Notes: a model not told the origin generated them from the sequence alone. Shown: positions 16,204 to 51,440, numbered from the whole stretch's first letter. The stretch: 63,134 nt of DNA, filler included, from Gemmatimonadota bacterium (GCA_003697105.1; 5 parts of 5 records of this genome joined end to end with filler, not necessarily neighbours in it), one strand, 5' to 3'. A program made the numbers and translations.

Positions 16204-16303
16204 NNNNNNNNNNNNNNNNNNNNNNNNNNNNNNNNNNNNNNNNNNNNTTAATTAATTAANNNNNNNNNNNNNNNNNNNNNNNNNNNNNNNNNNNNNNNNN
16301 NNN
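16204..16303. other. Artificial contig-join spacer
   Basis: 100-nt N run with central TTAATTAATTAA (stop codons in all six frames). Confidence 0.95.
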
Positions 16304-16337
16304 CGCACAGCGCTTGCCGCTCCTTCCGAAAATATAA

Positions 16338-16366
16338 TTGACAATCCTCTTGAATTCTACTAACAT
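16338..16366 (+). promoter_or_regulatory. Putative sigma70 promoter of the M14 peptidase gene
   Basis: TTGACA-N17-TAACAT. Confidence 0.65.
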
Positions 16367-16426
16367 AAACGATTCCCACAGGCGATGAAACCCCCTGTTT
16401 CCATCACGTTTTTGTGGAGGTTATCC

Positions 16427-19090: not shown

Positions 19091-19103
19091 TCAGCGGAAT
19101 TAA

Positions 19104-19137
19104 AAACGTGCCGAATCTGTAAAGATTTGGCACGTTT
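19104..19137. repeat. 15-bp inverted repeat hairpin (terminator or REP-like)
   Basis: AAACGTGCCGAATCT-GTAA-AGATTTGGCACGTTT between the peptidase gene and rel. Confidence 0.6.
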
Positions 19138-19180
19138 GGTTCAGAATAACCACCGTTCGGGTAATTCGAGCCGCTAACAC

Positions 19181-21367
19181 ATGAATGCTACGGAATTTTT
19201 AAATCGTCTTAATACCAATTTTACAGCGGCAGAGTGCGACCTGATTCGCCGGGCATACGATTTTGGCTGGTACCATCACCGGAGTCAAACGCGCGATTCT
19301 GGAGAGCCATATTTTACCCATTGTGAAGCCGTGGCAGAAATTTTCGTCACGGAGGTTTTCGCCGATGCCGAAGGATGTGCCGCCGCCTTGCTCCATGATG
19401 TGGTGGAGGATACGTCCGCCGAACTCGGGCAGATCGAGCAGGAGTTTGGGGGAACTATCGCGCTACTGGTGGATGGATTGACCAAAATCGAACGCATTCA
19501 GAAAAAAAGTCGTTGGGAACGGCAAGTGGCGACCTTGCGCAAAATGCTCCTTTCTACGGTTAAAGATGCACGAGTAGTTCTGGTCAAGCTTGCCGACCGG
19601 TTGCACAACATGCGTACCCTCACGTCACTCAGTGCGGATCGACAACAGCGAATTGCCTCCGAAACATTGGAAATTTACGCTCCCATTGCCCACCGCTTTG
19701 GGATGGGGCAGATCAAATCCGAACTCGAAGATTTATCCTTAAAGGCACTTCACCCCGAAGCGTTTTATCGCCTCAAGGAATTGGTCAATCAAAAGAAACA
19801 AGAGCGCGATGCGCTGATCGATTTTGTCAGAGTGCAGGTGGTGGCGGAATTGGCGGAAAACGGGTTAGAAAACTATGAAATTTTCGGACGCTCCAAGCAT
19901 TTTTACAGCCTGTACTGTAAAATGAAAAAAGGCTATACTTTTGACGAAATTTATGATAAAATCGGCTTGCGAATTGTCTTTGGAGACAAGGGCGCGACGG
20001 ACACACTCTCAAAAATGGAACACCAAGCGCTGATTGGAAACTGTTATCAGGCACTCGGTATTATTCATCGCCTCTGGACTCCTTTGTCAAACCGGTTGAA
20101 AGACTATATTGGTAATCCCAAACCCAACAAGTACCAATCCTTGCACACTACGGTGATGATTCCCGACGTCGGCCAAGTGGAATTTCAAATCCGTACGGCA
20201 CGGATGCACCAAACTGCCGAAAGAGGAATTGCAGCACACTGGCGTTATAAAGAAAAAAATACCACCGAAAATTTTAACGATGAACTCTCGTGGCTGGGAC
20301 GGGTTTTGGAGGCGGATCAATATAGTGAAAACCCTCATGAATTTTTGGAATCGCTCCGAATTGAGCTGTTCAAGGATGATATTTTTGTGTACACGCCTCG
20401 CGGTGATGTAGTTCAGTTGCCCCAAGGAGCAACGTTACTAGATTTCGCCTTTGCCATCCATACGGAGATCGGGTTAAGTTGCACGGGAGGTCACATTAAT
20501 GGTCGATTTGCCAAATTAGGGACACCGCTACGGAGTGGGGATCAGGTCCACATCTCCCGTTCCCCCTCGCAATCCCCCAATCCAAATTGGCTTAATTATG
20601 TGGTCACGTCCAAAGCTCGCAATAAAATCCGGCAATATTTACGGGTGGAAGCGTTTCGTCACCATGTGGAACTGGGCAAGGAAAAATTGTTGCAGGAGGC
20701 GAAGCTCCAAAATTACAAACTAAAGCTGGTTCCATCCAAATTTGAAGACCTCATCCGGGAATATCATCAAAAAAGCTTTGAGCATTTACTGGAAGCCATT
20801 GGCTCGGGCAATATTAGCCCCCAGACGATCCTCCGCAAACTCTTTCCGGAAAGTGCCGGAAAAGACACCTTGCCAGAAGTGGAACCGCCGGTTATCCCCA
20901 GCGCCCACCTGCAACGGGGTGCGGCAACCGTCCATCTCAAGGAGGTGGGGCAAGTTTTACTCCGTTTTGCCCGCTGTTGCGAACCCATTCCCGGCGACCG
21001 GATTGTGGGGTTTATCACCCGTGGGCGCGGATTGACCATCCACCGGACAGATTGCCGGAATATCACCACCATGTCCCCTCCTGAAAAACAACGACTGATA
21101 CCAGTCCAGTGGGAAATCCCCAAGAAAAAGGGCAAATTTCCGGCAAAAGTGTGGGTTCGTGCCTACCATTCAGAAACCTTTTTAGAGCGCCTGAAACGGA
21201 CGGTAGAAAGCTATAATTCTACGTTGACGGCACAAATTAGTATTAATCAACGTGAAATCTATGGTATTCTGATTATCGAGGTGGTGGATTTGGATCACCT
21301 CGACCGAATTATTCGCCACTTACGCACCATGAAAGAAGTACAAGAGATCAATCGTGCCAAACGGTAA
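19181..21367 (+). CDS. rel: Bifunctional (p)ppGpp synthetase/hydrolase, long RelA/SpoT homolog
   Basis: HD domain (ALLHDVVEDT, KLADRLHNMRTL), synthetase (RLKDYI, YQSLHT, EFQIRT), TGS (DFAFAIHT), RCCEPIPGD..IHRTDC, ACT-like end. Confidence 0.95.
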   Translation: MNATEFLNRLNTNFTAAECDLIRRAYDFGWYHHRSQTRDSGEPYFTHCEAVAEIFVTEVFADAEGCAAALLHDVVEDTSAELGQIEQEFGGTIALLVDGLTKIERIQKKSRWERQVATLRKMLLSTVKDARVVLVKLADRLHNMRTLTSLSADRQQRIASETLEIYAPIAHRFGMGQIKSELEDLSLKALHPEAFYRLKELVNQKKQERDALIDFVRVQVVAELAENGLENYEIFGRSKHFYSLYCKMKKGYTFDEIYDKIGLRIVFGDKGATDTLSKMEHQALIGNCYQALGIIHRLWTPLSNRLKDYIGNPKPNKYQSLHTTVMIPDVGQVEFQIRTARMHQTAERGIAAHWRYKEKNTTENFNDELSWLGRVLEADQYSENPHEFLESLRIELFKDDIFVYTPRGDVVQLPQGATLLDFAFAIHTEIGLSCTGGHINGRFAKLGTPLRSGDQVHISRSPSQSPNPNWLNYVVTSKARNKIRQYLRVEAFRHHVELGKEKLLQEAKLQNYKLKLVPSKFEDLIREYHQKSFEHLLEAIGSGNISPQTILRKLFPESAGKDTLPEVEPPVIPSAHLQRGAATVHLKEVGQVLLRFARCCEPIPGDRIVGFITRGRGLTIHRTDCRNITTMSPPEKQRLIPVQWEIPKKKGKFPAKVWVRAYHSETFLERLKRTVESYNSTLTAQISINQREIYGILIIEVVDLDHLDRIIRHLRTMKEVQEINRAKR

Positions 21368-21439
21368 GCGGGCGGACATCTCCGCAGAAGCCCGAAACCG
21401 GAATGGAGCGGAGCTTTAGAATCGAGAGAAAGGATAAAA

Positions 21440-23893
21440 ATGATCGAGAACGTCAAACAGAAACAGCAGGAACTGGCTACCTTGACGGATTCAGTTGAAA
21501 AAGTGGATTTGCTGAAAGAGATATCCGAATATTTTCAGCGGAAAGACCCACTTCAAGCGCTGCAATATGCGACCCAAGCCGCCGAAATTGCCGGACGCAT
21601 TGGCTACGACTCGGGTTATGCCGAGGCCATCTTTCTGCAAGGGAAGCATCAAAACAATTTGGGTCAATATGTCGAATCCATGAAGCTTCTGAAACAGGCA
21701 CTTTCTCTGTTTGAAACCCTGAATGATCGCACGGGGTATATTAAAGCCCTAAATTTAAAGGGAATGGTCAATTACCGGCTAGGTGATTTTCAGGATGCAC
21801 TGGTTGACTTGACGGAAGTCCTCAAATCGGAAGAGGACATCGATGATAAATCCATACGGGCTAGTGCGCTGAACACGATGGGAAATATTTATTCCGATCT
21901 CGATGATTATGATAATGCCCTCAAATATTATCAGGAAGGGTTAGAAAAATTTCGGGAAACCGGCGATCGAAATGGTGAGGCAAGTATCCTCAATAACTTG
22001 GGGATTCTTTACTCTGATTTGGGGGCGTATGAAAAATCGCTTTCACACTATTTGGCGTGTCTAAAAATTCGCGAGGAACAAGAAGACCCCCGTGGAATTG
22101 CAATTACACTCTTAAATATTGGTGATTTGTATATGAAGCAAGGTGAATTTGGGAAAGCCCTTGCCTGCCACCATAACGCGCTAGATATAAACACCGGTAT
22201 CGGGAATAAAGCAGTGGAAGCCCATATCAATGGGTCAATTGGTAAACTGTGGGTCAAGCAGGAGAAATGGGAAAAAGCGATTCCGTACCTTGAAAAAGCG
22301 ACGGAATTAGCGGCGGAAGTGGAAGACCGGAATCTGCGTGTACAAACGCTGAAAAACCTTGCCTCTGCTCACGAAGCTCTCGGAAACATGTCCGATGCCT
22401 TGAGTTACTTTAAAATGTGCTATCAGATTGAGAAAAAAGCCTTTGATGAGGAGTATAAAGAACGAATCGATTATCTGAAAAACCGCTACGAAGCGGAAAA
22501 AAAAGAAAAAGAAGCCGAAATTTACCGGCTCAAAAATGTGGAACTGGCACGGCTATACGATCACATCCGCCTCATCAGTGAAATCGGACAAAAAATCACC
22601 GCCTCTTTATCATTGGAGACGATTCTGACCACCGTTTATGAGAACATCAATCAGTTAATGAAGGCAGATGGCTTCGGAATTGATCTGTATCATCCAGAAA
22701 CCGAAGAGATCGAGTACAAATTCTTCATTGAACGAGGGGAACGCTTAAAGCCTCTCACCGGTTCGGTACATGATGAGGGAAGTTTCTCCGCTTGGGCAAT
22801 TCGGAATCGCAAAGAGGTTTTTCTGAACGATGCGACCCAAGAATACATGGCCTATATACCGAAGTTGAAAGCGGTGGGAGCCGACGAAGGAGGTGAAACC
22901 CTTTCCGCACTGTATGTTCCGCTGATTGTGGAAGACCGCGTCGTGGGGGTCGTGACGGTACAAAGTTTTGATCCGGGCGCGTACACCCCAGCGGATTTGG
23001 ATATGTTGCGGGCGCTAGGCAACTATATTGCCGTCGCGTTGGATAATGCCCGGGCTTATGCCGAACTCAACAAAGCGATAGACGATTTGAAAACCGCGGA
23101 AGTCCAGATGCTCCAATCGGAACGGATGGCATCCTTAGGGGAACTTTCCAGCATGATCGGGCATGAATTTAACAATATCCTGAACGGGATCAGTTCTCCG
23201 GTGGAACTGATTATGAGCCAACCTCCCCTTGATGAAGATGTGATCTGGCACTGTTGGGAATCGGATCAAGAAGGGCATGAACTACAAGCATATCTGGAAG
23301 AACGCCGTCAGGTATGGGAAAAAATCAGAGAAGCCTCTAAGATGATTAAATTAGCCTCGGATCGTGCTTTCGAGACCATCCGCGACCTGCAAGCCATTGC
23401 CGGCGGTAAAAGCCGTAAATTAGGCTTAACCGATATTGTGGAAACCCTGGAAGAGACCATCCGCCTCCAAAGACATAAATTGCACAAGATTGAGATCGTG
23501 AAAGAGATTGAAGCGGAACAATTTCGGGTGATGATTACCAGCGGGGAAATGGGACAAATCTTTATGAATTTTCTGGTAAATGCCGCTCATGCGCTGGAAG
23601 GTCAGGAAGACGCGCGGATTACCATCCGGATGCGCCAGCAAGATGGCGGTGTGGAGATTCAATTCGCCGATAATGGCAAAGGTATGTCGGAGGAAGTTCA
23701 AAAACGCATTTTTGAACCCTTTTTTACAACCAAAGGCGAAAAAGGTACCGGTATCGGTCTGACCATGGTCAAGCGGATTGTAGATCAGCGGGGCGGAAAA
23801 ATCACCGTGGAAAGCCAAGAAGGTGAGGGCACCACCTTTACCATCTGGTTCCCCCAAGAGATTCAAGAATTGAGCAAACATCATGGCAACTAA
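21440..23893 (+). CDS. Soluble TPR-GAF-histidine kinase (array member 1)
   Basis: TPR repeats (LNNLGILY..LGAYEKSL), GAF (SALYVPLIVEDRVVGVVTVQS), H-box GHEFNN, N box NAAHA, DNGKG, FFTTK, GTGIGL; no TM segment seen. Confidence 0.9.
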   Translation: MIENVKQKQQELATLTDSVEKVDLLKEISEYFQRKDPLQALQYATQAAEIAGRIGYDSGYAEAIFLQGKHQNNLGQYVESMKLLKQALSLFETLNDRTGYIKALNLKGMVNYRLGDFQDALVDLTEVLKSEEDIDDKSIRASALNTMGNIYSDLDDYDNALKYYQEGLEKFRETGDRNGEASILNNLGILYSDLGAYEKSLSHYLACLKIREEQEDPRGIAITLLNIGDLYMKQGEFGKALACHHNALDINTGIGNKAVEAHINGSIGKLWVKQEKWEKAIPYLEKATELAAEVEDRNLRVQTLKNLASAHEALGNMSDALSYFKMCYQIEKKAFDEEYKERIDYLKNRYEAEKKEKEAEIYRLKNVELARLYDHIRLISEIGQKITASLSLETILTTVYENINQLMKADGFGIDLYHPETEEIEYKFFIERGERLKPLTGSVHDEGSFSAWAIRNRKEVFLNDATQEYMAYIPKLKAVGADEGGETLSALYVPLIVEDRVVGVVTVQSFDPGAYTPADLDMLRALGNYIAVALDNARAYAELNKAIDDLKTAEVQMLQSERMASLGELSSMIGHEFNNILNGISSPVELIMSQPPLDEDVIWHCWESDQEGHELQAYLEERRQVWEKIREASKMIKLASDRAFETIRDLQAIAGGKSRKLGLTDIVETLEETIRLQRHKLHKIEIVKEIEAEQFRVMITSGEMGQIFMNFLVNAAHALEGQEDARITIRMRQQDGGVEIQFADNGKGMSEEVQKRIFEPFFTTKGEKGTGIGLTMVKRIVDQRGGKITVESQEGEGTTFTIWFPQEIQELSKHHGN

Positions 23894-25859
23894 CATCGAA
23901 ACCCTGCGGGCACAAATCGAACAAGAAACAGAACCACGGGCAAAAATCGATCTGCAAAATCGCTTGGTGTTTGAACTCAGCTATTCCAACCCCGAAGAAG
24001 CCCAAACGTTGGTGAACGCCGTTGCCCAAAAAGCGGAACAGTTAGGGTATGCCGTAGGTCTGGCAAATAGCTACCGCAATATGGGAATTTTGGATATTTA
24101 TCAGTCGGAATATCACCACGCGTTAGCGCATTTTTTGCGGGCAATTGAACTATACAAAGATGCCGGCTGTAAAGAAGGGTTGGCAACCACCTACAACAAC
24201 ATGGGCGTGATCTACTACTACTTGATTGACTATGAAAACACGCTAACTTACTACAAAAAAAGCCTTCAGCTCAGTGAAGAAATCAGTGACTATGAGACCC
24301 AAGTCTCGTTACTGAGCAATATTGGCGCGGTTTACGCCCAAATGGAGAACACCCGAGAGGCAAAGCATTACTTTGAACGGTCTTTAGCACTGGCAGAAGC
24401 ACATCAAGATTATGAAGGGCAGGTCAACGCGCTGCATAATTTAGCCCATGTTACCGAAGGCGAAAAACTCCATCAGGCGGCTCTAAATTACGCGCTGAAA
24501 GCCAAAAGCATTGTCGAAAACCACTACCCCAGCCAGCGACACTTGATGACCTGTTGGAGCGGAATCGGATTGGCATATCGGGGCTTAGAACGCTTTTCCG
24601 AGGCAATTGATTTTTACCAGCGCGCGTTGGAACTCAGTCGTAAACTCCATGATAAACGGGAACAAGTGATCGGTCTGCGTGAGATCGGTGAATGTTATAT
24701 TGCCCTTCATCAAATGGAAAATGCATTAGATTACCTAAAACAAGCCGAACACCTCGCCGAGGCCATGGATTCTCAGGAGTTGGAAATTAATGTGTATGAA
24801 TCGCTCTTTCGTCTATACGAACAGCAGAATGATATTGCCGCGGCATTAGCTTATCACAAAAAGTATCATCAGGCAGAGATCACGGTTTTAAGAGAAAAAT
24901 ATGATCAAAACACACAGTTGCTTCAAGTGCGATTCCAAGTGGAACAAAAAGAACGTGAAGCCGAACTCTACCGGCGGGAAAACGAAGAACTTGAACGCCT
25001 CAACGCGGAATTGGAAGCCACCAACCAGAAATTGGTCGAAACCCAAGCCCAATTGATAGAGTCACAAGCCAAACGTATTCAAGCAGAAAAACGAGCAACC
25101 CTCGGCGAACTTGCCGGAATGGTGACGCATGAAATCAATAACGCTCTCAGTGGTATTCGGAGTTCGTTAGAGCAAATTTATCACACGCCTCGTTTAGATG
25201 AAGACCGGATTTGGCACTGCTGGGAGAACGACCAAGAAGGTACGGAGTTGCAAGCCTATCTGGCGAAACGCCGCATGGAAGAAGACCACATTATTGCCGC
25301 CACCGAACTGGCACAGCGTGCTGAGGTACGGGCAGAACAGGTCATTAAAGACCTAAAAAGCCTTGTGGGAGATGAAAGTCAGGAACTGGGAACGATCCAT
25401 CTTGTGGAGATATTCCGCAAAGCCGTACGATTACAATGGGAACGACTGGAGCGCATCAACATTATTGAGGATATTGAGTCTGAAGATTTAACCCTGACTG
25501 CCACCAGTGGCGAAATAGGTCAACTTTTTTTGATTTTGCTGAGTAATGCCAGTGATGCCCTGAAAGACCACTCCGAACCGGAAATTCATGTGAAAATGCA
25601 AACCCAAAATGGGGGAATTCAGGTTGATTTCAGCGATAATGGCTGTGGAATACCGCCATCGATTCAGGCGGAGATATTCCACCCGTTTTTTACCACCAAA
25701 GGGGAGTCCAGTTCTGGCGTGGGGCTTTCCACCTTTAAACGAATCATTGACGCCTACAACGGAACCATTCACCTCAAGAGTGACATTGGAAAAGGTACAA
25801 CCTTCTCCTTTTGGTTACCCGAGGACGCCAAAGGAAAAACGGCTGTATTTAAATCGTAA
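23883..25859 (+). CDS. Soluble TPR-histidine kinase (array member 2)
   Basis: TPR repeats, coiled coil, THEINN, NASDA, DNGCG, FFTTK, SGVGL; overlaps member 1 by 11 nt. Confidence 0.9.
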   Translation: MATNIETLRAQIEQETEPRAKIDLQNRLVFELSYSNPEEAQTLVNAVAQKAEQLGYAVGLANSYRNMGILDIYQSEYHHALAHFLRAIELYKDAGCKEGLATTYNNMGVIYYYLIDYENTLTYYKKSLQLSEEISDYETQVSLLSNIGAVYAQMENTREAKHYFERSLALAEAHQDYEGQVNALHNLAHVTEGEKLHQAALNYALKAKSIVENHYPSQRHLMTCWSGIGLAYRGLERFSEAIDFYQRALELSRKLHDKREQVIGLREIGECYIALHQMENALDYLKQAEHLAEAMDSQELEINVYESLFRLYEQQNDIAAALAYHKKYHQAEITVLREKYDQNTQLLQVRFQVEQKEREAELYRRENEELERLNAELEATNQKLVETQAQLIESQAKRIQAEKRATLGELAGMVTHEINNALSGIRSSLEQIYHTPRLDEDRIWHCWENDQEGTELQAYLAKRRMEEDHIIAATELAQRAEVRAEQVIKDLKSLVGDESQELGTIHLVEIFRKAVRLQWERLERINIIEDIESEDLTLTATSGEIGQLFLILLSNASDALKDHSEPEIHVKMQTQNGGIQVDFSDNGCGIPPSIQAEIFHPFFTTKGESSSGVGLSTFKRIIDAYNGTIHLKSDIGKGTTFSFWLPEDAKGKTAVFKS

Positions 25860-25874
25860 ATCTAAGGTAAAACA

Positions 25875-27857
25875 ATGACAGAAAAAATAAAACAACTTCA
25901 AGATCAACTCGAACATGCCTCCAGTGTACATGAAAAAGTTGATACCTTAACCGAGTTGTCAAAAGAGTATACTCAAAATCAACCGCACGAGGCACTATCC
26001 GCGGCAAATCAAGCGTTAGAACTTGCCAAAACCATTGATTATAAAAGTGGTATTGCCAAAGCATTAGCCCGATTGTGCCGCTGTTATGAACGGTTTTCCA
26101 ATTATGAAAAAGCCCTCTCATTAGGTCTGGAATCCCTAGAGTTATTTGAATCTATCGACGATGACAACGGCAAAGCCGGCATTTTAAGCCGGTTGGCCTG
26201 GATTTATCAAACTTTAGGCGATTATGCCACCGCCCTTGATCACGCCATGACCAGTTTGGAATTATACCGTAAGATCAATGATCCCCAAGGAATTTTTAGT
26301 GCGTTCAACACGTTGGGTTCCGTCAGTGGTAATGCAGGTGACCCCGATAAAGCATTGGAATATTACGAAGAAGCGTTACAAATCAGTCGGGAATCCAATT
26401 TACGAGCCAGTGAAGCCGTCGCCCTCGTCAATATCGGCACAGTTTATTGCCGGACATTTGACGACCCGGAAGAAACCAAAACCAAAAATGAACTGGCGAT
26501 TCAATATTTTGAAAAAAGCGGTGTAATCTTTGAGGAAGAAAAGAATCTGTTCAATAAAAATATCACGATAATGAACACCGGCGCTGCCTATCTCAACTTG
26601 AAAAAATATCCTGAGGCGCTGGAATGCTTTTACCACAGCTTGGAAACCGCAGAATCACTCGAACAAAAGTCCATCCAAGCCCATTGCCTGAGCAATATTG
26701 CGGGCGTGTACTCCCAGCAAGAAAAATATGATGAGGCGTGTACCTATTACTTCCGTGCTCTCGCCTTAGCTGAAGATACCAAAGAGAAACCCCGTTTGGC
26801 GGCGATTCATCAAAATTTAGCCGAAGTGTTTGAAAAGATGGAGGAGTTCACCAAAGCCTTGGAACACTTCAAAAAATACCATGAACTAAATAGCGAAGTT
26901 TTTAATGAAAATTCAGACCGGAAATTGAAGAACTTACAAGTCATGCATCAAGTGGATCAGTCCAAGCGGGAAGCCGATCTTTTACGAGAAAAAAACGAAG
27001 AACTCGCCAAATTAAATCAGGAATTAGAGCAAACCAATGAACAATTGGTCAAAACACAAATTCAACTGATGCAGGCACAAGCAAAACGGCTGGAAAATGA
27101 ACGAATGGCGGCGTTAGGGGGGATTACCAATATGGTCGCCCACGAGATGAATAATGCTCTGAACGCTTTAAAAATGCCCCTCGAACAACTGAGTAACTTG
27201 CCGAAATTAGATAGCGAGCGCATTTGGCACTATTGGGAAAATGACGATGATGGTATCGAACTTCAGGCATACCTCGCCCAGCGAGAACGAGAATTGAAAA
27301 CCGCTGCTGACTGTGTCGAATGTGCGAAAAATGCGGAACTTCGGATGGAACAGGTTATTTGCGGCTTACGACATTTAGCCGGCGAAAAAAGTCAAGATTT
27401 ACGCTCAATTAACATCGTTGAAATTTTTCAGGAAGCTGTCCGCTTGCAATGGCAATATCTGGAAAAGCTGGCACTCATCAAAGAGATAGAACAACCGGAA
27501 ATGTATCTCACCGCTACCAGCGGTGAATTGGGGCAAATCTTCCTCATTTTAATCAGCAATGCTTGTGATGCCCTGAAAAATAAGCCTCATCCCACCATCA
27601 CGGTTAAAATGCACTATAAAAATGACGGTATTGAAATTCTATTTCAGGATAACGGTAGCGGAATACCCTCTGATATCCAACAACGAATATTTGACCCCTT
27701 TTTTACCACCAAAGGTGAACAAAACTCCGGGGTGGGGCTTTCCACCCTGAAGCGAATTATTACCAAATACAAAGGGCATCTTACCGTCGCCAGCGAAGAA
27801 AATGAAGGTACAACGTTCCGAATTTGGCTTCCCCTGCATACTAAAGCGAGCCGCTAA
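25875..27857 (+). CDS. Soluble TPR-histidine kinase (array member 3)
   Basis: TPR repeats, AHEMNN, NACDA, DNGSG, FFTTK, SGVGL. Confidence 0.9.
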   Translation: MTEKIKQLQDQLEHASSVHEKVDTLTELSKEYTQNQPHEALSAANQALELAKTIDYKSGIAKALARLCRCYERFSNYEKALSLGLESLELFESIDDDNGKAGILSRLAWIYQTLGDYATALDHAMTSLELYRKINDPQGIFSAFNTLGSVSGNAGDPDKALEYYEEALQISRESNLRASEAVALVNIGTVYCRTFDDPEETKTKNELAIQYFEKSGVIFEEEKNLFNKNITIMNTGAAYLNLKKYPEALECFYHSLETAESLEQKSIQAHCLSNIAGVYSQQEKYDEACTYYFRALALAEDTKEKPRLAAIHQNLAEVFEKMEEFTKALEHFKKYHELNSEVFNENSDRKLKNLQVMHQVDQSKREADLLREKNEELAKLNQELEQTNEQLVKTQIQLMQAQAKRLENERMAALGGITNMVAHEMNNALNALKMPLEQLSNLPKLDSERIWHYWENDDDGIELQAYLAQRERELKTAADCVECAKNAELRMEQVICGLRHLAGEKSQDLRSINIVEIFQEAVRLQWQYLEKLALIKEIEQPEMYLTATSGELGQIFLILISNACDALKNKPHPTITVKMHYKNDGIEILFQDNGSGIPSDIQQRIFDPFFTTKGEQNSGVGLSTLKRIITKYKGHLTVASEENEGTTFRIWLPLHTKASR

Positions 27858-29830
27858 TGACCGATCCCATCCAACATCTTGAACAGAAATTGGAAACCGT
27901 TACCCGTGAGGCAGAACGGGTCGATCTGCTAAATGACCTCACCAAAGCGTGGGCAACCCGTTCCATCGACAAAGCGGCGATGTACGCCCAAAAAGCCCTC
28001 GAACTCGCCGAACAGATCAATTACCCCTTTGGATTCGCCGTTGCCTTATACCGGGGTGGCGCCGTCTCTTTTTATCAGGGATACGCGACAAAAACAATTC
28101 AACAATGCCAACGCGCTTGTGAGATGTTTAAAGAATTGGGCGAAGCCGAGTTGATGATCGAATCGTTGCAGTACACCGGTAACGGTTACATGGAATTGGG
28201 TGACCATGAAAAAGCGTTAGATTATCTGATCCAAGCGCTACGCGCCGCTGAAGAACTCGGGGATAAATCCATAATCGCTAAATGCTTGAATACGTTGGGT
28301 AATTTCTACAACGAAATTCGGCAACGAGAGCGTGGCATGAAGTATCATCAGCAGGCATTACAACTTTATCAGGAGATCGGTGATCACGATGGAATTGCGG
28401 TGGCTCAAACCAATCTGGGTATTGGATACACCCAATGTGAGCAATACGACCAAGCGGTAGAAGCTTTTACCACTGCCTTGCATTATTACGAGGAAATGGG
28501 GCAAACCTTACGGGCGGCGCAGGTGATGAATAACCTAGGGTTCTTATATAAACGACAGGAACAATGGGACACCGCCTTGGAGTATTTCAACCGCTCATTG
28601 GACATCAAAACCCAACACCATGATCAGCGGGGGATGATTCATTCCTTGATGAATAAGAGTGAGATTCTCAATAACCTAGGTCAGCCGGAAACCGCACTGG
28701 AAAATCAGTTGACCGCCTTACGCCTAGCGGAAGAACTCAGCCTAAAATCAATGATCGCTAACATTAACTATAACATTGCCCATACCTACACCATGTTGGG
28801 GGATCACAAAACCGCCTACCAATCTCTTCTGAAATATGTAGAATTAAATCGGGAGTTAACCTCCGAAGATATGCGAAAGAAACTTGCCGAAATGGAAACA
28901 CAGAATGAACTGGAGCGAAAAGAAAGAGAAACTGAATTATACCGCCTGAAAAATGTCGAATTAGCGCGACTGAATGAAGAATTGGAGAAAACAAACCAAT
29001 CCTTGATCGAAACTCAGCTTAAATTGGTGGAATCTCAAGCGCAACGGATTCAAGCAGAGAAATTAGCAACCCTTGGTGAACTGGCGGGGGTCATCGCTCA
29101 TGAAGTCAACAATGCCTTGAGTGGCATCATGGTGCCCAATGAAATCATTTTGAACACGCCGGAGTTGGATCGGGACAAAATCTGGCAATGTTGGGAATCA
29201 GATGAAGATGGCAGTTTGCTCGAAGCCTATCTGGACCAGCGGGAAAAGGAATTCCGCCGGGTGAAATCGGCCGCAGATATGATTCGCACCGCCGCTAAAC
29301 GGGCGGCACATGTGGTGGATGACCTGCAAAATCTCATTGGGGGACGAAGCCGGCAGTTGGGTCCGGTGAACCTGTGCCAAGTGTTCCGGAGTGCCTGCCG
29401 TCTCCAAAAACAGCGCCTCGAACGGATCACCATTATTGAAGAATTTGAGTGTGACCCTTTAGAAATCGTTATCACCAGCGGGGAAGTGGGGCAGATTTTT
29501 ATGCATTTGCTGGTTAATGCCAGTGATGCCCTGCAAGAGCAAAAAAGCGCAATCATCACGGTCCGAATGTACCGCCAAGCGAACGGAGTCCAGATTGAAT
29601 GTGCCGATAATGGTCGTGGCATACCACCAGACCACCTAGAACACCTTTTTGATCCGTTCTTCTCCACCAAAACCCGGGACGGTTCCGGCTTAGGATTGAC
29701 CGCCGTTAAGCGTATTATTGAAGAATACGGTGGATCCATTGATGTTCAAAGTGAAATCGGAGTAGGCACAACCTTTTCGGTGTGGTTGCCAACGGATCAC
29801 AAAGGAAAAGGTCGCGTATTTCATTTATAA
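27857..29830 (+). CDS. Soluble TPR-histidine kinase (array member 4)
   Basis: TAATG stop/start overlap with member 3; TPRs, AHEVNN, NASDA, DNGRG, FFSTK, GSGLGL. Confidence 0.9.
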   Translation: MTDPIQHLEQKLETVTREAERVDLLNDLTKAWATRSIDKAAMYAQKALELAEQINYPFGFAVALYRGGAVSFYQGYATKTIQQCQRACEMFKELGEAELMIESLQYTGNGYMELGDHEKALDYLIQALRAAEELGDKSIIAKCLNTLGNFYNEIRQRERGMKYHQQALQLYQEIGDHDGIAVAQTNLGIGYTQCEQYDQAVEAFTTALHYYEEMGQTLRAAQVMNNLGFLYKRQEQWDTALEYFNRSLDIKTQHHDQRGMIHSLMNKSEILNNLGQPETALENQLTALRLAEELSLKSMIANINYNIAHTYTMLGDHKTAYQSLLKYVELNRELTSEDMRKKLAEMETQNELERKERETELYRLKNVELARLNEELEKTNQSLIETQLKLVESQAQRIQAEKLATLGELAGVIAHEVNNALSGIMVPNEIILNTPELDRDKIWQCWESDEDGSLLEAYLDQREKEFRRVKSAADMIRTAAKRAAHVVDDLQNLIGGRSRQLGPVNLCQVFRSACRLQKQRLERITIIEEFECDPLEIVITSGEVGQIFMHLLVNASDALQEQKSAIITVRMYRQANGVQIECADNGRGIPPDHLEHLFDPFFSTKTRDGSGLGLTAVKRIIEEYGGSIDVQSEIGVGTTFSVWLPTDHKGKGRVFHL

Positions 29831-29842
29831 CACGGCAGAGAG

Positions 29843-31831
29843 ATGACCACCATGTCTGAGTTGGCAAAAAAACTGAAAACCCAATTGGAGACCGTCACCG
29901 ACCCCGCCACAAGGGTCGATCTTCTCAACCAGTTGGCGTGGCATACATGGCGCCAAGATGCCAATCAAGCACTCCGCTATAGTGAGCAGGCGTTTGCTCT
30001 GGCACACGAGATCAATTATCCCAAAGGCATTATCCAAAGTTTGATCCGTAAAGGACTAAGTTGCCTGACATTTGCCCGCTATGACGAGGCACTATCTCAC
30101 TTCCAAACCGCATTGCGCATAATGGATGACACCGGGGAAACCGGCGAGAAGGGATTTATTCATAACCGAATCGGTGTGGTCTATTACAATTTGGGAGATT
30201 ATAATAAAGCCTTGCAAGAACAATTAGTCTGCTTAGAAATCAGTCAAGAAACTCAGGATAAACGGCTGGAAAGCCGGGCTTTAAACAGCATCGGTATCAT
30301 TAGTAATGCGTTGGAACGCTTTGAAGAAGCACTCGAATATTACCAACGAAGTATGACCCTCGCCGAAGAGATTAACGACTTGCAATTACAGGCGTTTGCG
30401 CTTAATAACATGGGCACCGTTTATGACTCCCTAAAACATTATGATAAAGCCCTCGAAAATTATCGAAAAAGCATTGAAATCAATGAAAAGTTAGGAAATG
30501 ATACCGCCCGCGCAATTGGGATCAGCAACATGGGAGATGCATATCGTCTAATGAAAGATTACCCCCAAGCCTTAAAATATTATCAAGAAGCACTCGCCAT
30601 CGACCGGCAACGGGGAACAAAAAGCAGTGAAGCACACGTGTTGCACTCCTTAGGCGAACTGTATCTGGAACAAAAGGATACAGAACAGGCATTGCACTAC
30701 CTCACAGCGGCGTTGGAACTCAGCCAGCAGATTAAAAATAAGCATTTGGTATTCGAGGTGCATTTCTCGCTCTCCAAATTATATCGCACGGTAGAAGATT
30801 TTGAGCAAGCGTTAACCCATTTTGAGAAATATCATCAGATTAAAGAAGAAGTCCTCAATGAAGACTCCGCCCAAAAGGTGAAAAATTTCCAAATCCGGCT
30901 CGAACTGGAGCGGAAAGAAAAAGAAGCCGAAATTTACCGCAAAAAAAATGAAGAATTGGCTCGTTTGAACGAAGAACTCGAAAAAACGAACCAACAACTG
31001 CTGGAAGCCCAAATTCAGACGGTTACTGCCCAAGCAAAACAGATGGAAGCGGAACGGCTGGCAACATTGGGACGGGTTGCCAGTATGATCGGGCATGATA
31101 TGAACAATGCCCTCAGCGGGGTCATTTCCCCTTTAGAATATATCATCTTGGCAGAACCCCTCGATCAGGGTGAAATTTGGGACTGTTGGGAAACCGATGA
31201 AGATGGTAGTCGCCTAAAAGCCTATCTGGAAGAATGGGAAAAAACATGGAACCGGATACAGGACGCCGCCCAAATGATCCAAATCGGCGCAAAACGAGCG
31301 CACATGGTGATTAACGACCTGCAAAGTGCTGTCGGTGGCAAAAGCCAGAAACTGGGCTATATCAATCTACCGGATGTCTTTCGGGAAAGTGTCCGGCTGC
31401 AGAAAAAACATTTGCTGAACATCAATGTTATCGAAAAATTTGAGAGCGAGGAGATGCGGGTTGTGACCACCAGTGGTGCCATGAGCCAAATATTTATGAA
31501 CCTCCTGATCAATGCCTGCCATGCGCTAGAAGGACGGGAAAACCCGACGATCATTGTCGAATTGAAAACCAAAAATGAGGGGGTCGAAATCCGTATTTCC
31601 GATAATGGAAAGGGTATTCCCGAAGACATCATGCCCCATATTTTTAAGCCCTTCTTCTCCACCAAAGGTGAAGATGGCTCCGGGTTGGGGTTAGCCGCCA
31701 TCAAACAAATTTTGAAAGGGTTTAACGGTACCATCGAGGTCGAAAGTGAACTGGGTAAAGGCACTACTTTTATCGTTTGGATACCCAAAGAGGGTAAAGA
31801 AGTTCCGCTAATGAAACCACGCTGGGTCTAA
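29843..31831 (+). CDS. Soluble TPR-histidine kinase (array member 5)
   Basis: TPRs, GHDMNN, NACHA, DNGKG, FFSTK, GSGLGL. Confidence 0.9.
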   Translation: MTTMSELAKKLKTQLETVTDPATRVDLLNQLAWHTWRQDANQALRYSEQAFALAHEINYPKGIIQSLIRKGLSCLTFARYDEALSHFQTALRIMDDTGETGEKGFIHNRIGVVYYNLGDYNKALQEQLVCLEISQETQDKRLESRALNSIGIISNALERFEEALEYYQRSMTLAEEINDLQLQAFALNNMGTVYDSLKHYDKALENYRKSIEINEKLGNDTARAIGISNMGDAYRLMKDYPQALKYYQEALAIDRQRGTKSSEAHVLHSLGELYLEQKDTEQALHYLTAALELSQQIKNKHLVFEVHFSLSKLYRTVEDFEQALTHFEKYHQIKEEVLNEDSAQKVKNFQIRLELERKEKEAEIYRKKNEELARLNEELEKTNQQLLEAQIQTVTAQAKQMEAERLATLGRVASMIGHDMNNALSGVISPLEYIILAEPLDQGEIWDCWETDEDGSRLKAYLEEWEKTWNRIQDAAQMIQIGAKRAHMVINDLQSAVGGKSQKLGYINLPDVFRESVRLQKKHLLNINVIEKFESEEMRVVTTSGAMSQIFMNLLINACHALEGRENPTIIVELKTKNEGVEIRISDNGKGIPEDIMPHIFKPFFSTKGEDGSGLGLAAIKQILKGFNGTIEVESELGKGTTFIVWIPKEGKEVPLMKPRWV

Positions 31832-31887
31832 CCTGTATTATTTGTAACATGATACCCCAACGGCTCTAGAAAAAAATATAAACGACA

Positions 31888-31915
31888 TTGACTCTTTTCG
31901 CGGTTTATGAATAAT
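31888..31915 (+). promoter_or_regulatory. Possible internal promoter before array member 6
   Basis: TTGACT-N16-AATAAT preceded by an A-tract, in the only large (~124 nt) gap within the array. Confidence 0.35.
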
Positions 31916-31955
31916 TCAGGCTAAATAAAACGGTCCCGATTTTGTGGGGAAGGAA

Positions 31956-33932
31956 ATGCCGGATATTGCAGAATTAGAAAGACAACTTGAAATCTGTACC
32001 AGTGAACTTGAGCGAATTAACCTACGCAACCAACTTGCTTGGGAACTCAAAAAAAAAGATACGGATCACGCCTTTGCCCTCGCCACCGAGGCGTATAAGC
32101 AGGCAACCCAATTGAATTACTCCAAAGGGGTTGCCTACGCCCAGCGTGCCCGAGGGGCTTGCCTGATGTTCCAAGCAAAATATGATGAAGCCCTCCTGAA
32201 TCTCTCTCAAGCCGCTCAAACATTCAACGCCCTTACCGATCCATTTGGTGAAGCCTCCGTTTACAACGTGATGGGGGTCATTTATAAACGGATGGGTCAT
32301 TACAACCGTGCTTTGGAGTACTATCTGTTGGGACTAGATTATGCCGAACAGGCACAGGATTCGTTATTAATATCGAGCATTCTTAGCAATGTTGCCGGTA
32401 TCTATAGCGCCCTTGGGCAAAACCAACAAGCCCTTGATTATTATCAGAAAAATCTAGAGATCTACCGGCAAGCCGGGGATCGGGACCGGGAAGCCTTAGT
32501 ATGGGGCAACATCGCCAGTGTATATGATGCTCTTGGCGACCACGAAAAGGCACTCCAAGCCAGTTTTGATTGCCTCAAACTGAGCCAACAGGTTCAGAAT
32601 CAATGGCGTATCTGCAATACCCTGTGTAATATTGGGGCGATCTATTACCACTTGAAAACGTATGATGAGGCGCTGGAGTATTTCCAGCAAAGCCTGGTAC
32701 TGGCTAGGGAAATAAATAACATTCAGTTGCAAGCTCATGCCATGTTGGCGCTGGGTACGGTATATCGTGAAAAACAGATATATGATAAAGGATTGGATTA
32801 CCTGCACCAAGGGTTAGCACTGGCGGAACAGGTGCAAGAAAAGGAATCCATTAAAACCGCCTATAAAGCGATCTCTGAAATTTATGAAGAGACGGGAGAT
32901 TTCCAAAACGCTCTGGACTATCACAAAAAATTTCAGGAGATCGATCATGAAACCCTCACTATCAAGGCGGATGAGAATTTGCGGAAGATGCAAACCCAGT
33001 TTCAAGTTGATCTCAAGGAAAAAGAAACCGAAATACTTCGCCAAAAAAACGAGGAACTGGAGCATCTCAATGCCGAACTGGAAACCATGAATGAAAATTT
33101 AGTGGAAACCCAATTGAAACTCGTCCAATCTCAGGCACGGCGCATCGAAAGTGAAAAACTCGCCAAGCTAGGCGAACTCGCCAGCATGATGGCACACGAA
33201 ATAAATAATGCTCTCAGCGGGATTCTGGGTCCGGCAGAGCAAATCCAGAAAACCCCCCCACTGGATGAGGAGAGGATCTGGAAATGCTGGGAAACCGATC
33301 AGGAAGGTACTCAATTAAGTGCCTATTTGCACCAATGGAACTCCACGTGGCGCCGCATTCAAGATGCGGCAAATCTCATCACTACTGCCGGAAAACGTGC
33401 ACAACAGGCCATCTTGGATTTACAGAATTTTGTGGGGGATAAAAGCCATAAGTTGGGCGCTATCGTGATCAAAGATGTCCTTCAAGGGTCAATCCGGCTA
33501 CAAGCCCAGCGCTTGGAAAAATTACGTCTTATTCAGGATTTTGAAGACGATGACCTCCGGATCACGGCTACAACCGGTGAACTGAGCCAAATTTTTACAA
33601 ACCTGATCAGTAATGCAACGGACGCCTTGCAGAATGCGACAGACCCCACCATTACCATTCGGGTAAGCACCCACAATGGGGGCATCGAAATGCAGTTTAG
33701 CGATAACGGGATCGGCATCGCTCCGGAAGATATGCGCCGTATTTTTGAACCCATGTTCACGACGAAAGGGGAGAAAAGCTCCGGGTTGGGGCTTTCCACA
33801 GTCAAACGGATTGTAGAGGCGTACAACGGGACGATCCACGTTCAAAGCGAACTTGGAAGCGGCACAACGTTCACCCTCTGGCTACCGCTGGATGGTAAAA
33901 AAAGCCCTCATGCTCCTGCGGGTGCGGTATGA
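31956..33932 (+). CDS. Soluble TPR-histidine kinase (array member 6)
   Basis: TPRs, AHEINN, NATDA, DNGIG, MFTTK, SGLGL; ATG 31956 gives an N-terminus matching the paralogs. Confidence 0.9.
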   Translation: MPDIAELERQLEICTSELERINLRNQLAWELKKKDTDHAFALATEAYKQATQLNYSKGVAYAQRARGACLMFQAKYDEALLNLSQAAQTFNALTDPFGEASVYNVMGVIYKRMGHYNRALEYYLLGLDYAEQAQDSLLISSILSNVAGIYSALGQNQQALDYYQKNLEIYRQAGDRDREALVWGNIASVYDALGDHEKALQASFDCLKLSQQVQNQWRICNTLCNIGAIYYHLKTYDEALEYFQQSLVLAREINNIQLQAHAMLALGTVYREKQIYDKGLDYLHQGLALAEQVQEKESIKTAYKAISEIYEETGDFQNALDYHKKFQEIDHETLTIKADENLRKMQTQFQVDLKEKETEILRQKNEELEHLNAELETMNENLVETQLKLVQSQARRIESEKLAKLGELASMMAHEINNALSGILGPAEQIQKTPPLDEERIWKCWETDQEGTQLSAYLHQWNSTWRRIQDAANLITTAGKRAQQAILDLQNFVGDKSHKLGAIVIKDVLQGSIRLQAQRLEKLRLIQDFEDDDLRITATTGELSQIFTNLISNATDALQNATDPTITIRVSTHNGGIEMQFSDNGIGIAPEDMRRIFEPMFTTKGEKSSGLGLSTVKRIVEAYNGTIHVQSELGSGTTFTLWLPLDGKKSPHAPAGAV

Positions 33933-34312
33933 GATGGGTCTGGATTGCCGTTGGCGGGGCGCTGGGTGCAATCTGCCGCTATGTTGTGTCTGGATTGGCA
34001 CATCAACTGGTGCCCACTACCTTCCCGTGGGGGACCTTGGTAGTCAATTTGACCGGCTCATTTCTTATTGGGTTCTTATGGGCACTATTTGAAGAGCTGT
34101 GGCTCAGCCCATCATTGCGGCTACTGATTTTCACCGGCTTTTTGGGAGCATTTACGACGTTTTCCACCTTTAGTCTGGAAAGTACCCAACTATTACGCGA
34201 TAACGAGATCAAACTCGCCCTGATCAACCTAATCGGTAGCACCGTTTCGGGTATTATGCTGGTGTTGGTGGGTTTTATCTTTGCCCGCTTCTTACTTCAA
34301 CTTTTACGATAG
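33929..34312 (+). CDS. crcB: Fluoride channel Fluc/CrcB
   Basis: GGALGAICRY, FPWGTLVVN, TGFLGAFTTFSTFSLE; ATGA overlap with kinase 6. Confidence 0.95.
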   Translation: MRWVWIAVGGALGAICRYVVSGLAHQLVPTTFPWGTLVVNLTGSFLIGFLWALFEELWLSPSLRLLIFTGFLGAFTTFSTFSLESTQLLRDNEIKLALINLIGSTVSGIMLVLVGFIFARFLLQLLR

Positions 34313-34320
34313 GTGAGACG

Positions 34321-34653
34321 ATGATCCATGCCGATCACGAGATTTTACTCCGAATTTTCATCAGCGAAACGGATACCTACCACAAAAAACCGCTCTATGA
34401 ACAGATCGTCATCAAAGCACACGAATTAGGTATTGCCGGTGCGACCGTTTTACGCGGCTTGATGGGCTACGGCGCCGGTAGCCGTATCCACAGCGCCAAG
34501 GTCTTACGGCTGTCGGATGATCTACCGGTGGTGGTAGAACTTGTGGATGTGGAAGAAAAACTAAATCCCTTGATTCCGTTCCTCAACGACGTCGTCACGG
34601 AAGGCTTGATCACGATGGAAAAAGTAACGGTAATCAAGTACCGGAAAGGGTAA
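34321..34653 (+). CDS. DUF190 (PII-like) protein, commonly crcB-associated
   Basis: LLRIFISE.D...KPLYE.IV..A...GIAGATVLRG..GYG..S.IH...LS.DLPVVVE. Confidence 0.88.
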   Translation: MIHADHEILLRIFISETDTYHKKPLYEQIVIKAHELGIAGATVLRGLMGYGAGSRIHSAKVLRLSDDLPVVVELVDVEEKLNPLIPFLNDVVTEGLITMEKVTVIKYRKG

Positions 34654-34874
34654 GAGTACTCTCGGATGTGTAACTACTTGAGGTTACGAATCTTAAAATT
34701 TAGGTTTCAGCAGTTGCAATACACAAAAATTTAAATCACCACACCTCTCGGGATGATGTCTCATTCTTCGACTCTCATTTTTCAAAAACGACACGGTCGA
34801 AGACGGATGAAAAAGGGGATTAAGGGGGTCAAACATCCTTCCTCCCGTGCGGTTCCAACGCGCCTTCCCGCATG

Positions 34875-34942
34875 GTAGAGACGTTGCACTGCTTTGTGCC
34901 CCTACCAAAAAGACGTTGCAGTGCTTTGTGCCCCTACCAAAA
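34875..34942. repeat. Tandem 32-bp REP-like (GTAG...CTAC) repeat at the contig end
   Basis: AGACGTTGCA[C/G]TGCTTTGTGCCCCTACCAAAA twice (34879-34910, 34911-34942), first copy preceded by GTAG. Confidence 0.75.
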
Positions 34943-34947
34943 CACCG

Positions 34948-35047
34948 NNNNNNNNNNNNNNNNNNNNNNNNNNNNNNNNNNNNNNNNNNNNTTAATTAAT
35001 TAANNNNNNNNNNNNNNNNNNNNNNNNNNNNNNNNNNNNNNNNNNNN
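34948..35047. other. Artificial contig-join spacer
   Basis: 100-nt N-TTAATTAATTAA-N. Confidence 0.95.
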
Positions 35048-37097: not shown

Positions 37098-37197
37098 GCG
37101 CAACCGTTTTATGGGGGTTGGAAAAAAGGTCTCCCTAAAAAACAGGATTTCCATCCAAAAAGCAAGGATAATTTATGGGATAGTACATGCCCGCCTC

Positions 37198-38220
37198 TCA
37201 TTCGCTTGTATTGAGAATCTGAAGTTCGATTTCCAGCACCCAAAAATCATTGGTGTGGGGCAACGATTCTAGCCGGACCCAATCTTTTTCGGTGGTGATG
37301 ATTGCCTTGGCGTGTACTTGCTGGGCAACCGCACGAATCCGCACCACATCTGCCGTAGAATACGGATGGTGATCCGGAAAAATCAATGTCTGTCGTATCT
37401 CCCCACCGAGTTCCTGTAGCGTATGGTGAAATCCCTGCGGATTGCCGATACTGGACACGGCAACCACCGCCAATCCTTGCACGGCTTGTAGTGGGATGGT
37501 TTCCAAGGCAGATCGAAATCGTACCGGTCGATGCTTGGTGTGAAGGAGCGGTCGATCTACCTTGAGATGTATCTCAGCGGGGGCAGATACCCGGGTCAGG
37601 ACGATTTGCGAAGCCCGATTCAGGGCGGAAAGAGGTTCACGCAGAATGCCACGGGGCAGTAGATGCCCATTACCAAACGGGCACATGGCATCCACTAGCA
37701 CCACATCCTGATCGCGGGCAACTTGCCAATGCTGAAAAGCATCATCCAAGATAATCACGTCGGGGTTGAACTGTTCGATGGCAAATTGGCAGGCTTTAGC
37801 ACGATGGCGGCAGGCAAGCACCGGAATCCCGGAGGTTTTGAGGGCGATTAAATAGGGTTCATCTCCGCATGTTTTCCACTCTTTCAATCGATTTTGCCCG
37901 TCGGAAACCACAATCACCGTATCGCTCTCGGCTTTGTAGCCCCGGCTAATTGTCACCACCGTTTTACCTTCTGCTTGATATTTTTGGGCGAGGTAGATTA
38001 CGAACGGAGTTTTACCCGTCCCTCCCACTGTGATATTGCCTACACTGACAATCTCCACCGGAAATTGGCGGGATTTCAGGATACCGGTTTCATAACCGGT
38101 GCGCCGGATGCGTACCGCCGCGCCGTAAAGAATCGAACACCACCAGAGCAAGCCGCGTAGGGGTATTGCCCAGAACGGGAGGGGGTGGTCATATAAAATG
38201 GCAGTAATCAGGTGTCGCAT
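37198..38220 (-). CDS. lpxK: Tetraacyldisaccharide 4'-kinase
   Basis: SVGNITVGGTGKTP, SRGY, GDEP, ILDDAFQH, LLPRGILRE, FPDHH.Y, TTEKD. Confidence 0.96.
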   Translation of the reverse strand: MRHLITAILYDHPLPFWAIPLRGLLWWCSILYGAAVRIRRTGYETGILKSRQFPVEIVSVGNITVGGTGKTPFVIYLAQKYQAEGKTVVTISRGYKAESDTVIVVSDGQNRLKEWKTCGDEPYLIALKTSGIPVLACRHRAKACQFAIEQFNPDVIILDDAFQHWQVARDQDVVLVDAMCPFGNGHLLPRGILREPLSALNRASQIVLTRVSAPAEIHLKVDRPLLHTKHRPVRFRSALETIPLQAVQGLAVVAVSSIGNPQGFHHTLQELGGEIRQTLIFPDHHPYSTADVVRIRAVAQQVHAKAIITTEKDWVRLESLPHTNDFWVLEIELQILNTSE

Positions 38221-51384: not shown

Positions 51385-51440
51385 GAAAATATCCACGTGA
51401 AACGGCTACCTTATACCTTAATAGCGAAGGAGTGCCTTTT

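Follow-up and report, generated by a model that had tools for sequence, protein, structure and literature searches.

A tandem array of six cytoplasmic tetratricopeptide-repeat sensor histidine kinases that share an insert in the kinase core

Gene content and domain organization of the array

We analyzed a 63,134-nucleotide (nt) stretch of DNA (hereafter, the window) from an uncultured hot-spring bacterium. Positions 21440-33932 of the window are occupied by six co-oriented, intact open reading frames (ORFs), here designated HK1-HK6, which encode histidine kinases of 817, 658, 660, 657, 662 and 662 amino acids (aa), each with tetratricopeptide repeats (TPRs) followed by a coiled coil and a kinase core. 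The junctions between successive genes are, in order, -11, +15, -1 (TAATG), +12 and +112 nt. A preliminary description of the locus had proposed six co-oriented paralogs with overlapping or very short junctions over 12.5 kb, and the ORFs confirm this arrangement, with a last gap of 112 or 124 nt depending on whether HK6 starts at the GTG at 31944 or at the ATG at 31956. The genes, with the one domain that is not shared by all of them, are as follows (DHp, the dimerization and histidine-phosphotransfer hairpin).

21440..23893, + strand: HK1, 817 aa; TPR, coil, GAF and kinase core; Pfam TPR_12, GAF_2 and HATPase_c; highest 19-residue Kyte-Doolittle mean 1.42
22607..23044, + strand: GAF domain of HK1 (aa 390-535; PF13185, E = 1.7e-18), between the coil and the DHp
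23883..25859, + strand: HK2, 658 aa; TPR, coil and kinase core; start overlaps the HK1 stop by 11 nt
25875..27857, + strand: HK3, 660 aa; TPR, coil and kinase core
27857..29830, + strand: HK4, 657 aa; TPR, coil and kinase core; TAATG junction with HK3
29843..31831, + strand: HK5, 662 aa; TPR, coil and kinase core; the copy modelled with AlphaFold2
31944..33932, + strand: HK6, 662 aa from the GTG or 658 aa from the ATG at 31956; TPR, coil and kinase core; database protein P0121 is the 658-aa form

TPR families and HATPase_c were matched by Pfam in all six proteins, the latter (PF02518) scoring 77-97 bits, where the cut-off is 26.4. Across the array, little or no variation is seen in the H box (H-E/D-x-N-N), N box, G1 (DNGxG), F (FxPxFxTK) and G2 (GxGL) motifs, and the acceptor His, which lies within H-E/D-x-N-N-x-L and aligns to the H box of ZraS, is present in every copy. 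In contrast, no copy reaches the gathering score of the Pfam HisKA family (PF00512), which is 26.9 bits; the highest value is 23.1 bits, in HK6, and HK2, HK3 and HK5 give no match at E<=0.01. The reason is a conserved insert that splits the DHp. The HisKA/HATPase core of the preliminary description therefore stands as regards HATPase_c and the five motifs, and needs amending as regards HisKA. Its picture of six uniform TPR-coil-kinases likewise fits HK2-HK6; HK1 adds the GAF domain, a 159-residue insertion relative to the other five in the alignment that is absent from HK2-HK6.

No membrane or signal segment was seen in any of the six when judged by 19-residue Kyte-Doolittle hydropathy and N-terminal charge: the highest window means range from 1.12 to 1.42, and the N-termini are charged. 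A Pfam search for receivers (PF00072), whose scope was the window's five contigs and which says nothing about the rest of the genome, found none on the 18.6-kb contig that carries the array and none among the other scanned ORFs (an 88-aa ORF at 37894-38160, antisense to lpxK, lay outside the scan). On both points we agree with the earlier account, and gene structure, domains and hydropathy jointly bear out its reading of the genes as a bank of soluble sensor kinases with TPRs that arose by duplication.

The sensor parts have diverged further than the kinase parts, as had been judged by eye. Mean pairwise identity among the six is 27 per cent for the TPR parts and 47 per cent for the kinase parts (42-54 per cent among the kinase cores), and nonsynonymous divergence (dN) is 0.77-1.06 versus 0.38-0.56.

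Predicted structure and the nature of the sensor

HK5 was modelled with AlphaFold2 on an alignment of 36 sequences (mean pLDDT 87.1). In the model, a cap helix and 16 helices (residues 21-316) form eight TPR-like repeats of 40 residues, in keeping with the roughly seven to eight repeats and a coil that had been counted by eye. A single unbroken helix (320-436) begins as the final helix of the repeats, continues as the coiled-coil linker and ends as DHp helix 1, which carries His418. The insert forms a short helix (442-451) at the tip of the hairpin and is followed by DHp helix 2 (456-497) and the ATP-binding (CA) domain (505-648). The array proteins are intact soluble kinases, in which, according to the model, a TPR superhelix of the peptide-binding type is rigidly coupled to the DHp.

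In Foldseek searches, the best matches of the sensor were LGN/Pins TPR-peptide complexes (3sf4, 4wne and 3ro2; TM-score to target 0.54-0.67, 20-23 per cent sequence identity), and those of the core were HK853, ZraS and KinB. The TPR domains of LGN/GPSM2/Pins resemble the array sensors in being eight-repeat superhelices of 40-residue repeats, but belong to a eukaryotic polarity scaffold without a kinase. LGN holds extended peptides by means of an Asn ladder. An Asn recurs every 40 residues in helix A of several repeats, and this spacing may resemble the LGN ladder, an analogy that we regard only as a lead.

The preliminary description had likened the sensors to RRNPP/Rap proteins. The Rap/RRNPP receptors of Firmicutes are cytoplasmic TPR sensors that act on phosphorelay signalling (PMC3601992), and in being cytoplasmic and TPR-based they are like the array proteins. 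If the array proteins were quorum sensors of this kind, their TPR domains would bind imported oligopeptide pheromones. The superhelix does belong to a peptide-binding fold class, and a gene for an Opp-type solute-binding protein (SBP_bac_5) occurs elsewhere in the window (35109-37154). However, that gene is on the third contig and unlinked to the array, no peptide or transport gene lies on the array's own contig, and the contig has no ORF of >=100 aa besides the named genes and antisense ORFs, although shorter pro-peptide genes were not searched for. The best folds are those of LGN/Pins, with no Rap, NprR or PlcR among the matches listed, and TPR, GAF and kinase domains are the only ones found, with neither a helix-turn-helix (HTH) nor a Rap-type N-terminal domain; the phylum also differs. 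We consider RRNPP-like quorum sensing highly doubtful, and the analogy has no specific support.

A conserved insert at the tip of the DHp hairpin

All six kinases carry a conserved insert of ~25 residues at the tip of the DHp hairpin, with the motif IWxCWExDxEG within the consensus P-x-L-D-x3-I-W-x-C-W-E-x-D-x-[ED]-G-x2-L-x-A-Y-L. The DNA blocks that encode it are located as follows.

23225..23302, + strand: insert block of HK1, repeat family D4
25191..25268, + strand: insert block of HK2, repeat family D4
27204..27281, + strand: insert block of HK3, with Tyr in place of Cys; placed by the register of the protein alignment and not listed by the DNA repeat finder
29162..29239, + strand: insert block of HK4, repeat family D4
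31157..31234, + strand: insert block of HK5, repeat family D4; short helix 442-451 in the model
33258..33335, + strand: insert block of HK6, repeat family D4

Among solved structures, a profile of the six cores matched best by sequence the cytoplasmic domain of ZraS (PDB 9jfj; E = 3.5e-38). The alignment falls into two pieces: the H-box helix aligns, as does the part from DHp helix 2 through the CA domain, whereas profile positions 50-73, which correspond to the insert, have no counterpart in ZraS. The kinase core is of the NtrB/AtoS/ZraS type. ZraS itself differs from the array kinases in being membrane-bound, with a periplasmic sensor and no insert. An adjacent NtrC-type partner accompanies ZraS. 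In NCBIfam searches, AtoS, ZraS and VirA-like models were among the top partial matches for every copy, with FimS first for HK3 and EspC first for HK2; scores for the ZraS, AtoS and VirA-like models remained far below the cut-offs (83-146 bits versus 479-647; 95-129 versus 479 in the comparison with ZraS/AtoS/NtrB).

When the six-core profile was scanned with HMMER against 1.84 billion (1.84e9) cluster representatives, scores fell from 324 to 250 bits, and the insert motif was present in exactly 15 of the 150 listed representatives, all of them above this gap. Five of the 15 come from the window itself (four were identified by script; P0123 was assigned to HK3 by its length and match position). 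The other ten, from outside the window, carry various sensors, and just one of them has TPRs.

P0003, P0124, P0125 and P0127: insert-bearing core with periplasmic domains between two transmembrane segments (P0004 is built in this way too, but does not belong to the ten)
P0130 and P0132: insert-bearing core with propeller/Y_Y_Y domains
P0129: insert-bearing core in a giant protein with Ser/Thr-kinase, NTPase and GAF parts
P0126: core-only protein on a 1,991-bp contig
P0128: TPR-kinase with an insert-bearing core, from another metagenome-assembled genome (MAG)
P0131: 434 aa; an N-terminal receiver-like stretch (by eye) and an insert-bearing core, from a related MAG

Several of these relatives belong to one NCBI MAG labelled Gemmatimonadetes bacterium. 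A scan of GTDB-representative genomes yielded no insert-bearing copy among the matches listed; near-full-length matches there have <=33 per cent identity, and 39-47 per cent is reached only on three short CA-domain segments. A scan of metagenome contigs added no further insert-bearing copy. Judged from its sequence, the insert-bearing core is a rare and sharply delimited subfamily of kinase cores. Regardless of which sensor they carry, all 17 family members have almost identical residues at positions H+1 to H+9, counted from the acceptor His, and at the beginning of DHp helix 2.

P0131 has Ser in place of the acceptor His (..GMVASELSN..), and its N, G1, F and G2 motifs look intact. A protein of this type is a candidate hub, or a candidate heterodimer or pseudo-kinase partner, of the insert family; P0131 itself comes from a related MAG and is not known in the organism that carries the array.

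Evolutionary history of the six copies

The DNA of the copies is just 60-75 per cent alike, even in the motif blocks. Synonymous divergence (dS) is undefined in 14 of 15 TPR pairs and in 8 of 15 kinase pairs and amounts to 1.6-3.6 in the rest, so that it is saturated and none of the 30 comparisons gives a meaningful dN/dS ratio. The low similarity of the DNA and the saturation of dS indicate that the duplications are old and that the array is not an assembly artifact.

It is accordingly hardly credible that the copies are decaying, non-functional duplicates or an artifact of one repeated gene. The data come from a MAG, and a metagenomic contig invites that suspicion; nevertheless, all six frames are open, full-length and equipped with every catalytic motif, and copies that differ to this extent cannot be collapsed or inflated repeats. 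Two hot-spring metagenome runs also contain 0.97-0.99 of the sampled words, although these runs may be the source sample and so do not offer independent support.

In the phylogeny of the kinase parts, the insert family forms one clade (100/100 support), within which HK2-HK6 group with P0126 and P0128 (97/95), HK1 falls outside this group, and HK2 and HK3 are sisters (100/97). In the phylogeny of the TPR parts, HK3 is instead the sister of P0128 (100/100; 44 per cent identity). We compared constrained topologies with the approximately unbiased (AU) test. For the TPR parts, a clade of the six alone is rejected (P-value = 4e-6), whereas a clade of the six plus P0128 is not (P-value = 0.11). For the kinase parts, a grouping of HK3 with P0128 is rejected (P-value = 4e-5), and the six-only clade is borderline (P-value = 0.052).

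As reconstructed, then, the six do not form an exclusive clade, and the sensor and kinase trees disagree. The preliminary description had held that paralogs not forming one clade would weaken its case for a novel system; for the sensor halves a single clade fails, and for the kinase halves it is borderline. The sisterhood of the HK3 and P0128 sensors, together with the rejected six-only TPR clade, indicates that the copies had begun to diversify, at least in part, before the organism that carries P0128 split off. The different histories of sensors and kinases point to domain exchange or conversion, in which sensor and kinase halves may have been exchanged or converted between neighboring copies.

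Relationship to known systems

The preliminary description had put the array forward as an undescribed system. We found no basis for this claim, because soluble TPR-coil-kinases are widespread and named by NCBI, and tandem TPR-kinase pairs and TPR-cyclase arrays occur in the sampled Bacteroidota. Full-length relatives at 22-29 per cent identity are soluble TPR-coil-kinases of Chitinophagaceae, Cloacimonetes, Cyclobacteriaceae and other groups, and several of them (for example, P0025, P0064, P0073 and P0106, the last from Fulvivirga lutea) bear the NCBI name 'tetratricopeptide repeat-containing sensor histidine kinase'. The NCBI-named TPR-kinases share with the array a soluble N-terminal TPR part, a conserved linker (..KEAEIYRLKNVEL..) and a kinase core, and P0007, P0009, P0013, P0024 and P0025, like the array proteins, have no N-terminal hydrophobic segment by eye. 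Their cores, in contrast, lack the hairpin insert and are either ordinary HisKA or of other types. Elsewhere, this sensor module occurs in fusions with GGDEF, SpoIIE, cyclase, AraC, LuxR and CHAT outputs.

With the TPR-coil part of HK5 as query and a threshold of E<=1e-18, we also searched 121 genomes, a sample of the phylum to which a Cyclobacteriaceae MAG belongs. Forty-eight of the 121 genomes gave a match, and adjacent co-oriented copies were found in at least three.

Genome G082, L125 4000-16907 (G082:C35): six soluble TPR-class III cyclases in a row, 675-717 aa, adjoining a propeller/Y_Y_Y kinase and a REC-GerE regulator
Genome G082, L126 1161-10433 (G082:C59): mixed array of, in order, a TPR-cyclase, a TPR-kinase and two TPR-cyclases, followed by a TPR gene truncated at the end of the contig
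Genome G086: three TPR-TM-cyclases, whose members have a hydrophobic segment
Genome G123: two pairs of soluble TPR-HisKA-kinases, with no receiver beside the pairs

The arrays of G082 and G123 resemble that of the window in consisting of co-oriented tandem paralogs of 560-720 aa with the same TPR module and no hydrophobic segment. They differ in that their output is mostly a cyclase and that those members that are kinases lack the insert and match a standard HisKA at a score over the Pfam cut-off, and the TPR parts of the Bacteroidota arrays are <=35 per cent identical to HK5. The array in the window thus falls within a class of soluble TPR-coil-output proteins that is defined by N-terminal TPRs, a helical linker, a C-terminal enzyme and co-oriented tandem arrangement (six genes here; six, at least five, three, two and two elsewhere). 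Its architecture is not new; what is particular to it is that all six members are kinases and that they have the insert-bearing core. Rather than being a novel type of signalling system, the array is a less common form of a tandem arrangement that other bacteria have as well.

Porphyromonas FimS likewise combines TPR repeats with a kinase, and its model (NF053520) gave partial matches of 84-129 bits, below the cut-off of 600. FimS is membrane-anchored with periplasmic TPRs, whereas the array proteins lack a hydrophobic segment.

Cytoplasmic TPR-sensor kinases are common in annotation. At the level of the literature listings and abstracts that we surveyed, no characterized soluble (cytoplasmic) TPR-kinase was found, and the passages on TPRs in one review name only the periplasmic TPR-like sensors VbrK and VxrA (PMC8534201). 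The six diverged sensors on one nearly constant kinase chassis make a natural set for finding what TPR sensors bind.

Proposed function and alternative interpretations

We propose that the six genes encode orphan sensor histidine kinases of the cytoplasm and form a tandem bank, specific to the lineage and duplicated long ago, whose members sense proteins or peptides and act on one or more distal receivers, an interpretation to which we give about an even chance of being correct. The array proteins would be parallel dimers, in which each TPR groove would bind a different cytoplasmic protein segment or peptide. Ligand binding would be passed along the continuous helix and alter autophosphorylation, and the phosphoryl group would then pass to a receiver, or a small number of them, whose genes lie elsewhere. 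Situated beside the receiver-docking end of the DHp, the family-specific insert may contribute to keeping these kinases insulated from other pathways. Old duplications may have given rise to the array, followed by exchange of sensor or kinase halves between copies.

A many-to-one arrangement has a precedent in Bacillus KinA-KinE, several orphan kinases, some of them soluble, that converge on one receiver, Spo0F. The logic proposed for the array is the same, many kinases acting on one receiver; however, KinA-KinE are not in tandem and have PAS rather than TPR sensors, and their convergence is proven, whereas that of the array is proposed. For the array, convergence on one or a few receivers is just slightly ahead of six separate partners. 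It is favored because there is hardly any variation at H+1 to H+9 or where DHp helix 2 starts, the insert is situated by the docking site, and the kinase halves of the neighbors HK2 and HK3 group.

Several observations weigh against the proposed bank with shared receivers. Positions H+10 and H+11 of DHp helix 1 vary among the six copies, and the cores are just 42-54 per cent identical, so that the data fit separate partners as well as they fit a shared one. The Cys of the insert is not invariant, being Tyr in HK3 and Ala in P0128. The likeness to LGN is one of fold class and does not indicate a ligand, and the clades for the topology tests on the kinase parts were chosen after the trees had been seen. 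Finally, the role of the insert is proposed from its position only, and the partner, the ligands and any convergence are inferred. The variable Cys also led us to set aside redox sensing by this residue.

The varying H+10 and H+11 and the dissimilar cores would be expected if the six were independent orphan kinases, each of which gained its own distal receiver after duplication; the array would then reflect tandem duplication without working as a unit. The great age of the copies and the separate lineage of HK1 fit such independence as well, and partner specificity usually diverges among paralogous kinases shortly after they duplicate. Yet the insert family as a whole retains the H+1 to H+9 positions and the start of helix 2, co-transcription is suggested by junctions that overlap or are very short, and the kinase halves of HK2 and HK3 group despite the differing histories of their sensors. 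On balance, independence of the six is rather unlikely.

Alternatively, the shared DHp and insert may allow the copies to form dimers among themselves or with further insert-bearing cores, for example, that of a P0131-like REC-kinase without the acceptor His, and such pairing would permit combinatorial sensing. The conservation of the DHp and insert in 17 of 17 family members agrees with such heterodimers, as do the probable co-expression of the genes, judged from their junctions, and the composition of P0131, with its receiver-like stretch (by eye), its Ser for the acceptor His and its intact ATP-binding motifs. P0131, however, belongs to a different organism, and the organism with the array is not known to have a gene of this kind. 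Paralogous kinases are, moreover, as a rule selected against heterodimerization. We regard heterodimerization as very unlikely.

A more elaborate form of the proposed bank would be a set of cytosolic LGN-like TPR receptors, each with a different protein or peptide of own or foreign origin, that is wired through the DHp insert to a single hub, for example, a P0131-like REC-DHp-CA protein without the acceptor His. Such a many-to-one integrator, with its partner code in the insert and not in the usual DHp surface, is in our view quite unlikely. If the insert does set partner choice, it would be a new kind of specificity determinant in two-component signalling, located where receivers dock; if it does not, the array would be an ordinary lineage-specific expansion of orphan kinases.

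Assembly, neighboring genes and other features of the window

The window consists of five contigs joined end to end by runs of N, and the array lies on the second (16304-34947; 18.6 kb), on which every named gene is on the + strand. The paired 44-N joins between contigs make a binned metagenome assembly likely, and linkage across contigs is not to be assumed. The joins and the neighbors of the array are as follows.

16204-16303, 34948-35047, 43416-43515 and 59499-59598: contig joins (paired 44-N runs)
16385-19090, + strand: M14 carboxypeptidase with a sorting tail for type IX secretion (T9SS)
19181-21367, + strand: bifunctional RelA/SpoT gene (Pfam HD_4, RelA_SpoT, TGS and ACT_4), ending 72 nt 5' of HK1
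33929-34312, + strand: crcB (Pfam CRCB)
34321-34653, + strand: DUF190 gene (Pfam DUF190)

The stop of HK6 and the start of crcB share 4 nt (ATGA), and no Rfam family reached its gathering score anywhere in the window, so that no fluoride riboswitch was detected 5' of crcB. Because of the overlap and the empty Rfam result, crcB is probably read from the kinase transcript. Predicted promoters and terminators are at the level of shuffled sequences (20 versus 21.7 and 23 versus 20.4 in shuffles, respectively). A sigma-70-like site (31888-31915; TTGACT, 16 nt, AATAAT; 10 of 12 matches) is situated 5' of HK6 in the sole long gap of the array, and the regional count of such sites is not above that in shuffles. 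Among the sequencing runs listed as containing the stretch there is no RNA run.

Five antisense ORFs of 104-170 aa within the array are without any Pfam family. PADLOC returned generic TPR models only (PDLC01169, PDLC01171 and PDLC01092) and no defence-specific model, and hence a role in anti-phage defence has no support.

The RelA protein has a single relative at 61 per cent identity, with the remainder at <=44 per cent; Zixibacteria and Bacillota are named at that level, and the second-best cluster includes KSB1 members. Such distant relatives indicate that the host organism belongs to a poorly sampled lineage.

Elsewhere in the window, two ORFs on the - strand (62344-63090, 248 aa, and 59755-60081, 108 aa) have no Pfam family at E<=0.001, and a third - strand gene (41119-43143) encodes a 674-aa protein with TPR repeats followed by an FGE-sulfatase domain. 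Secreted peptidases of the M14, C25 (gingipain-like, 1295 aa) and M1 families and one small protein end in FlgD_ig or Por_Secre_tail domains (16385-19090, 43603-43923, 46452-50339 and 51432-54365), and these C-termini point to a putative set of T9SS-type secretion cargo.

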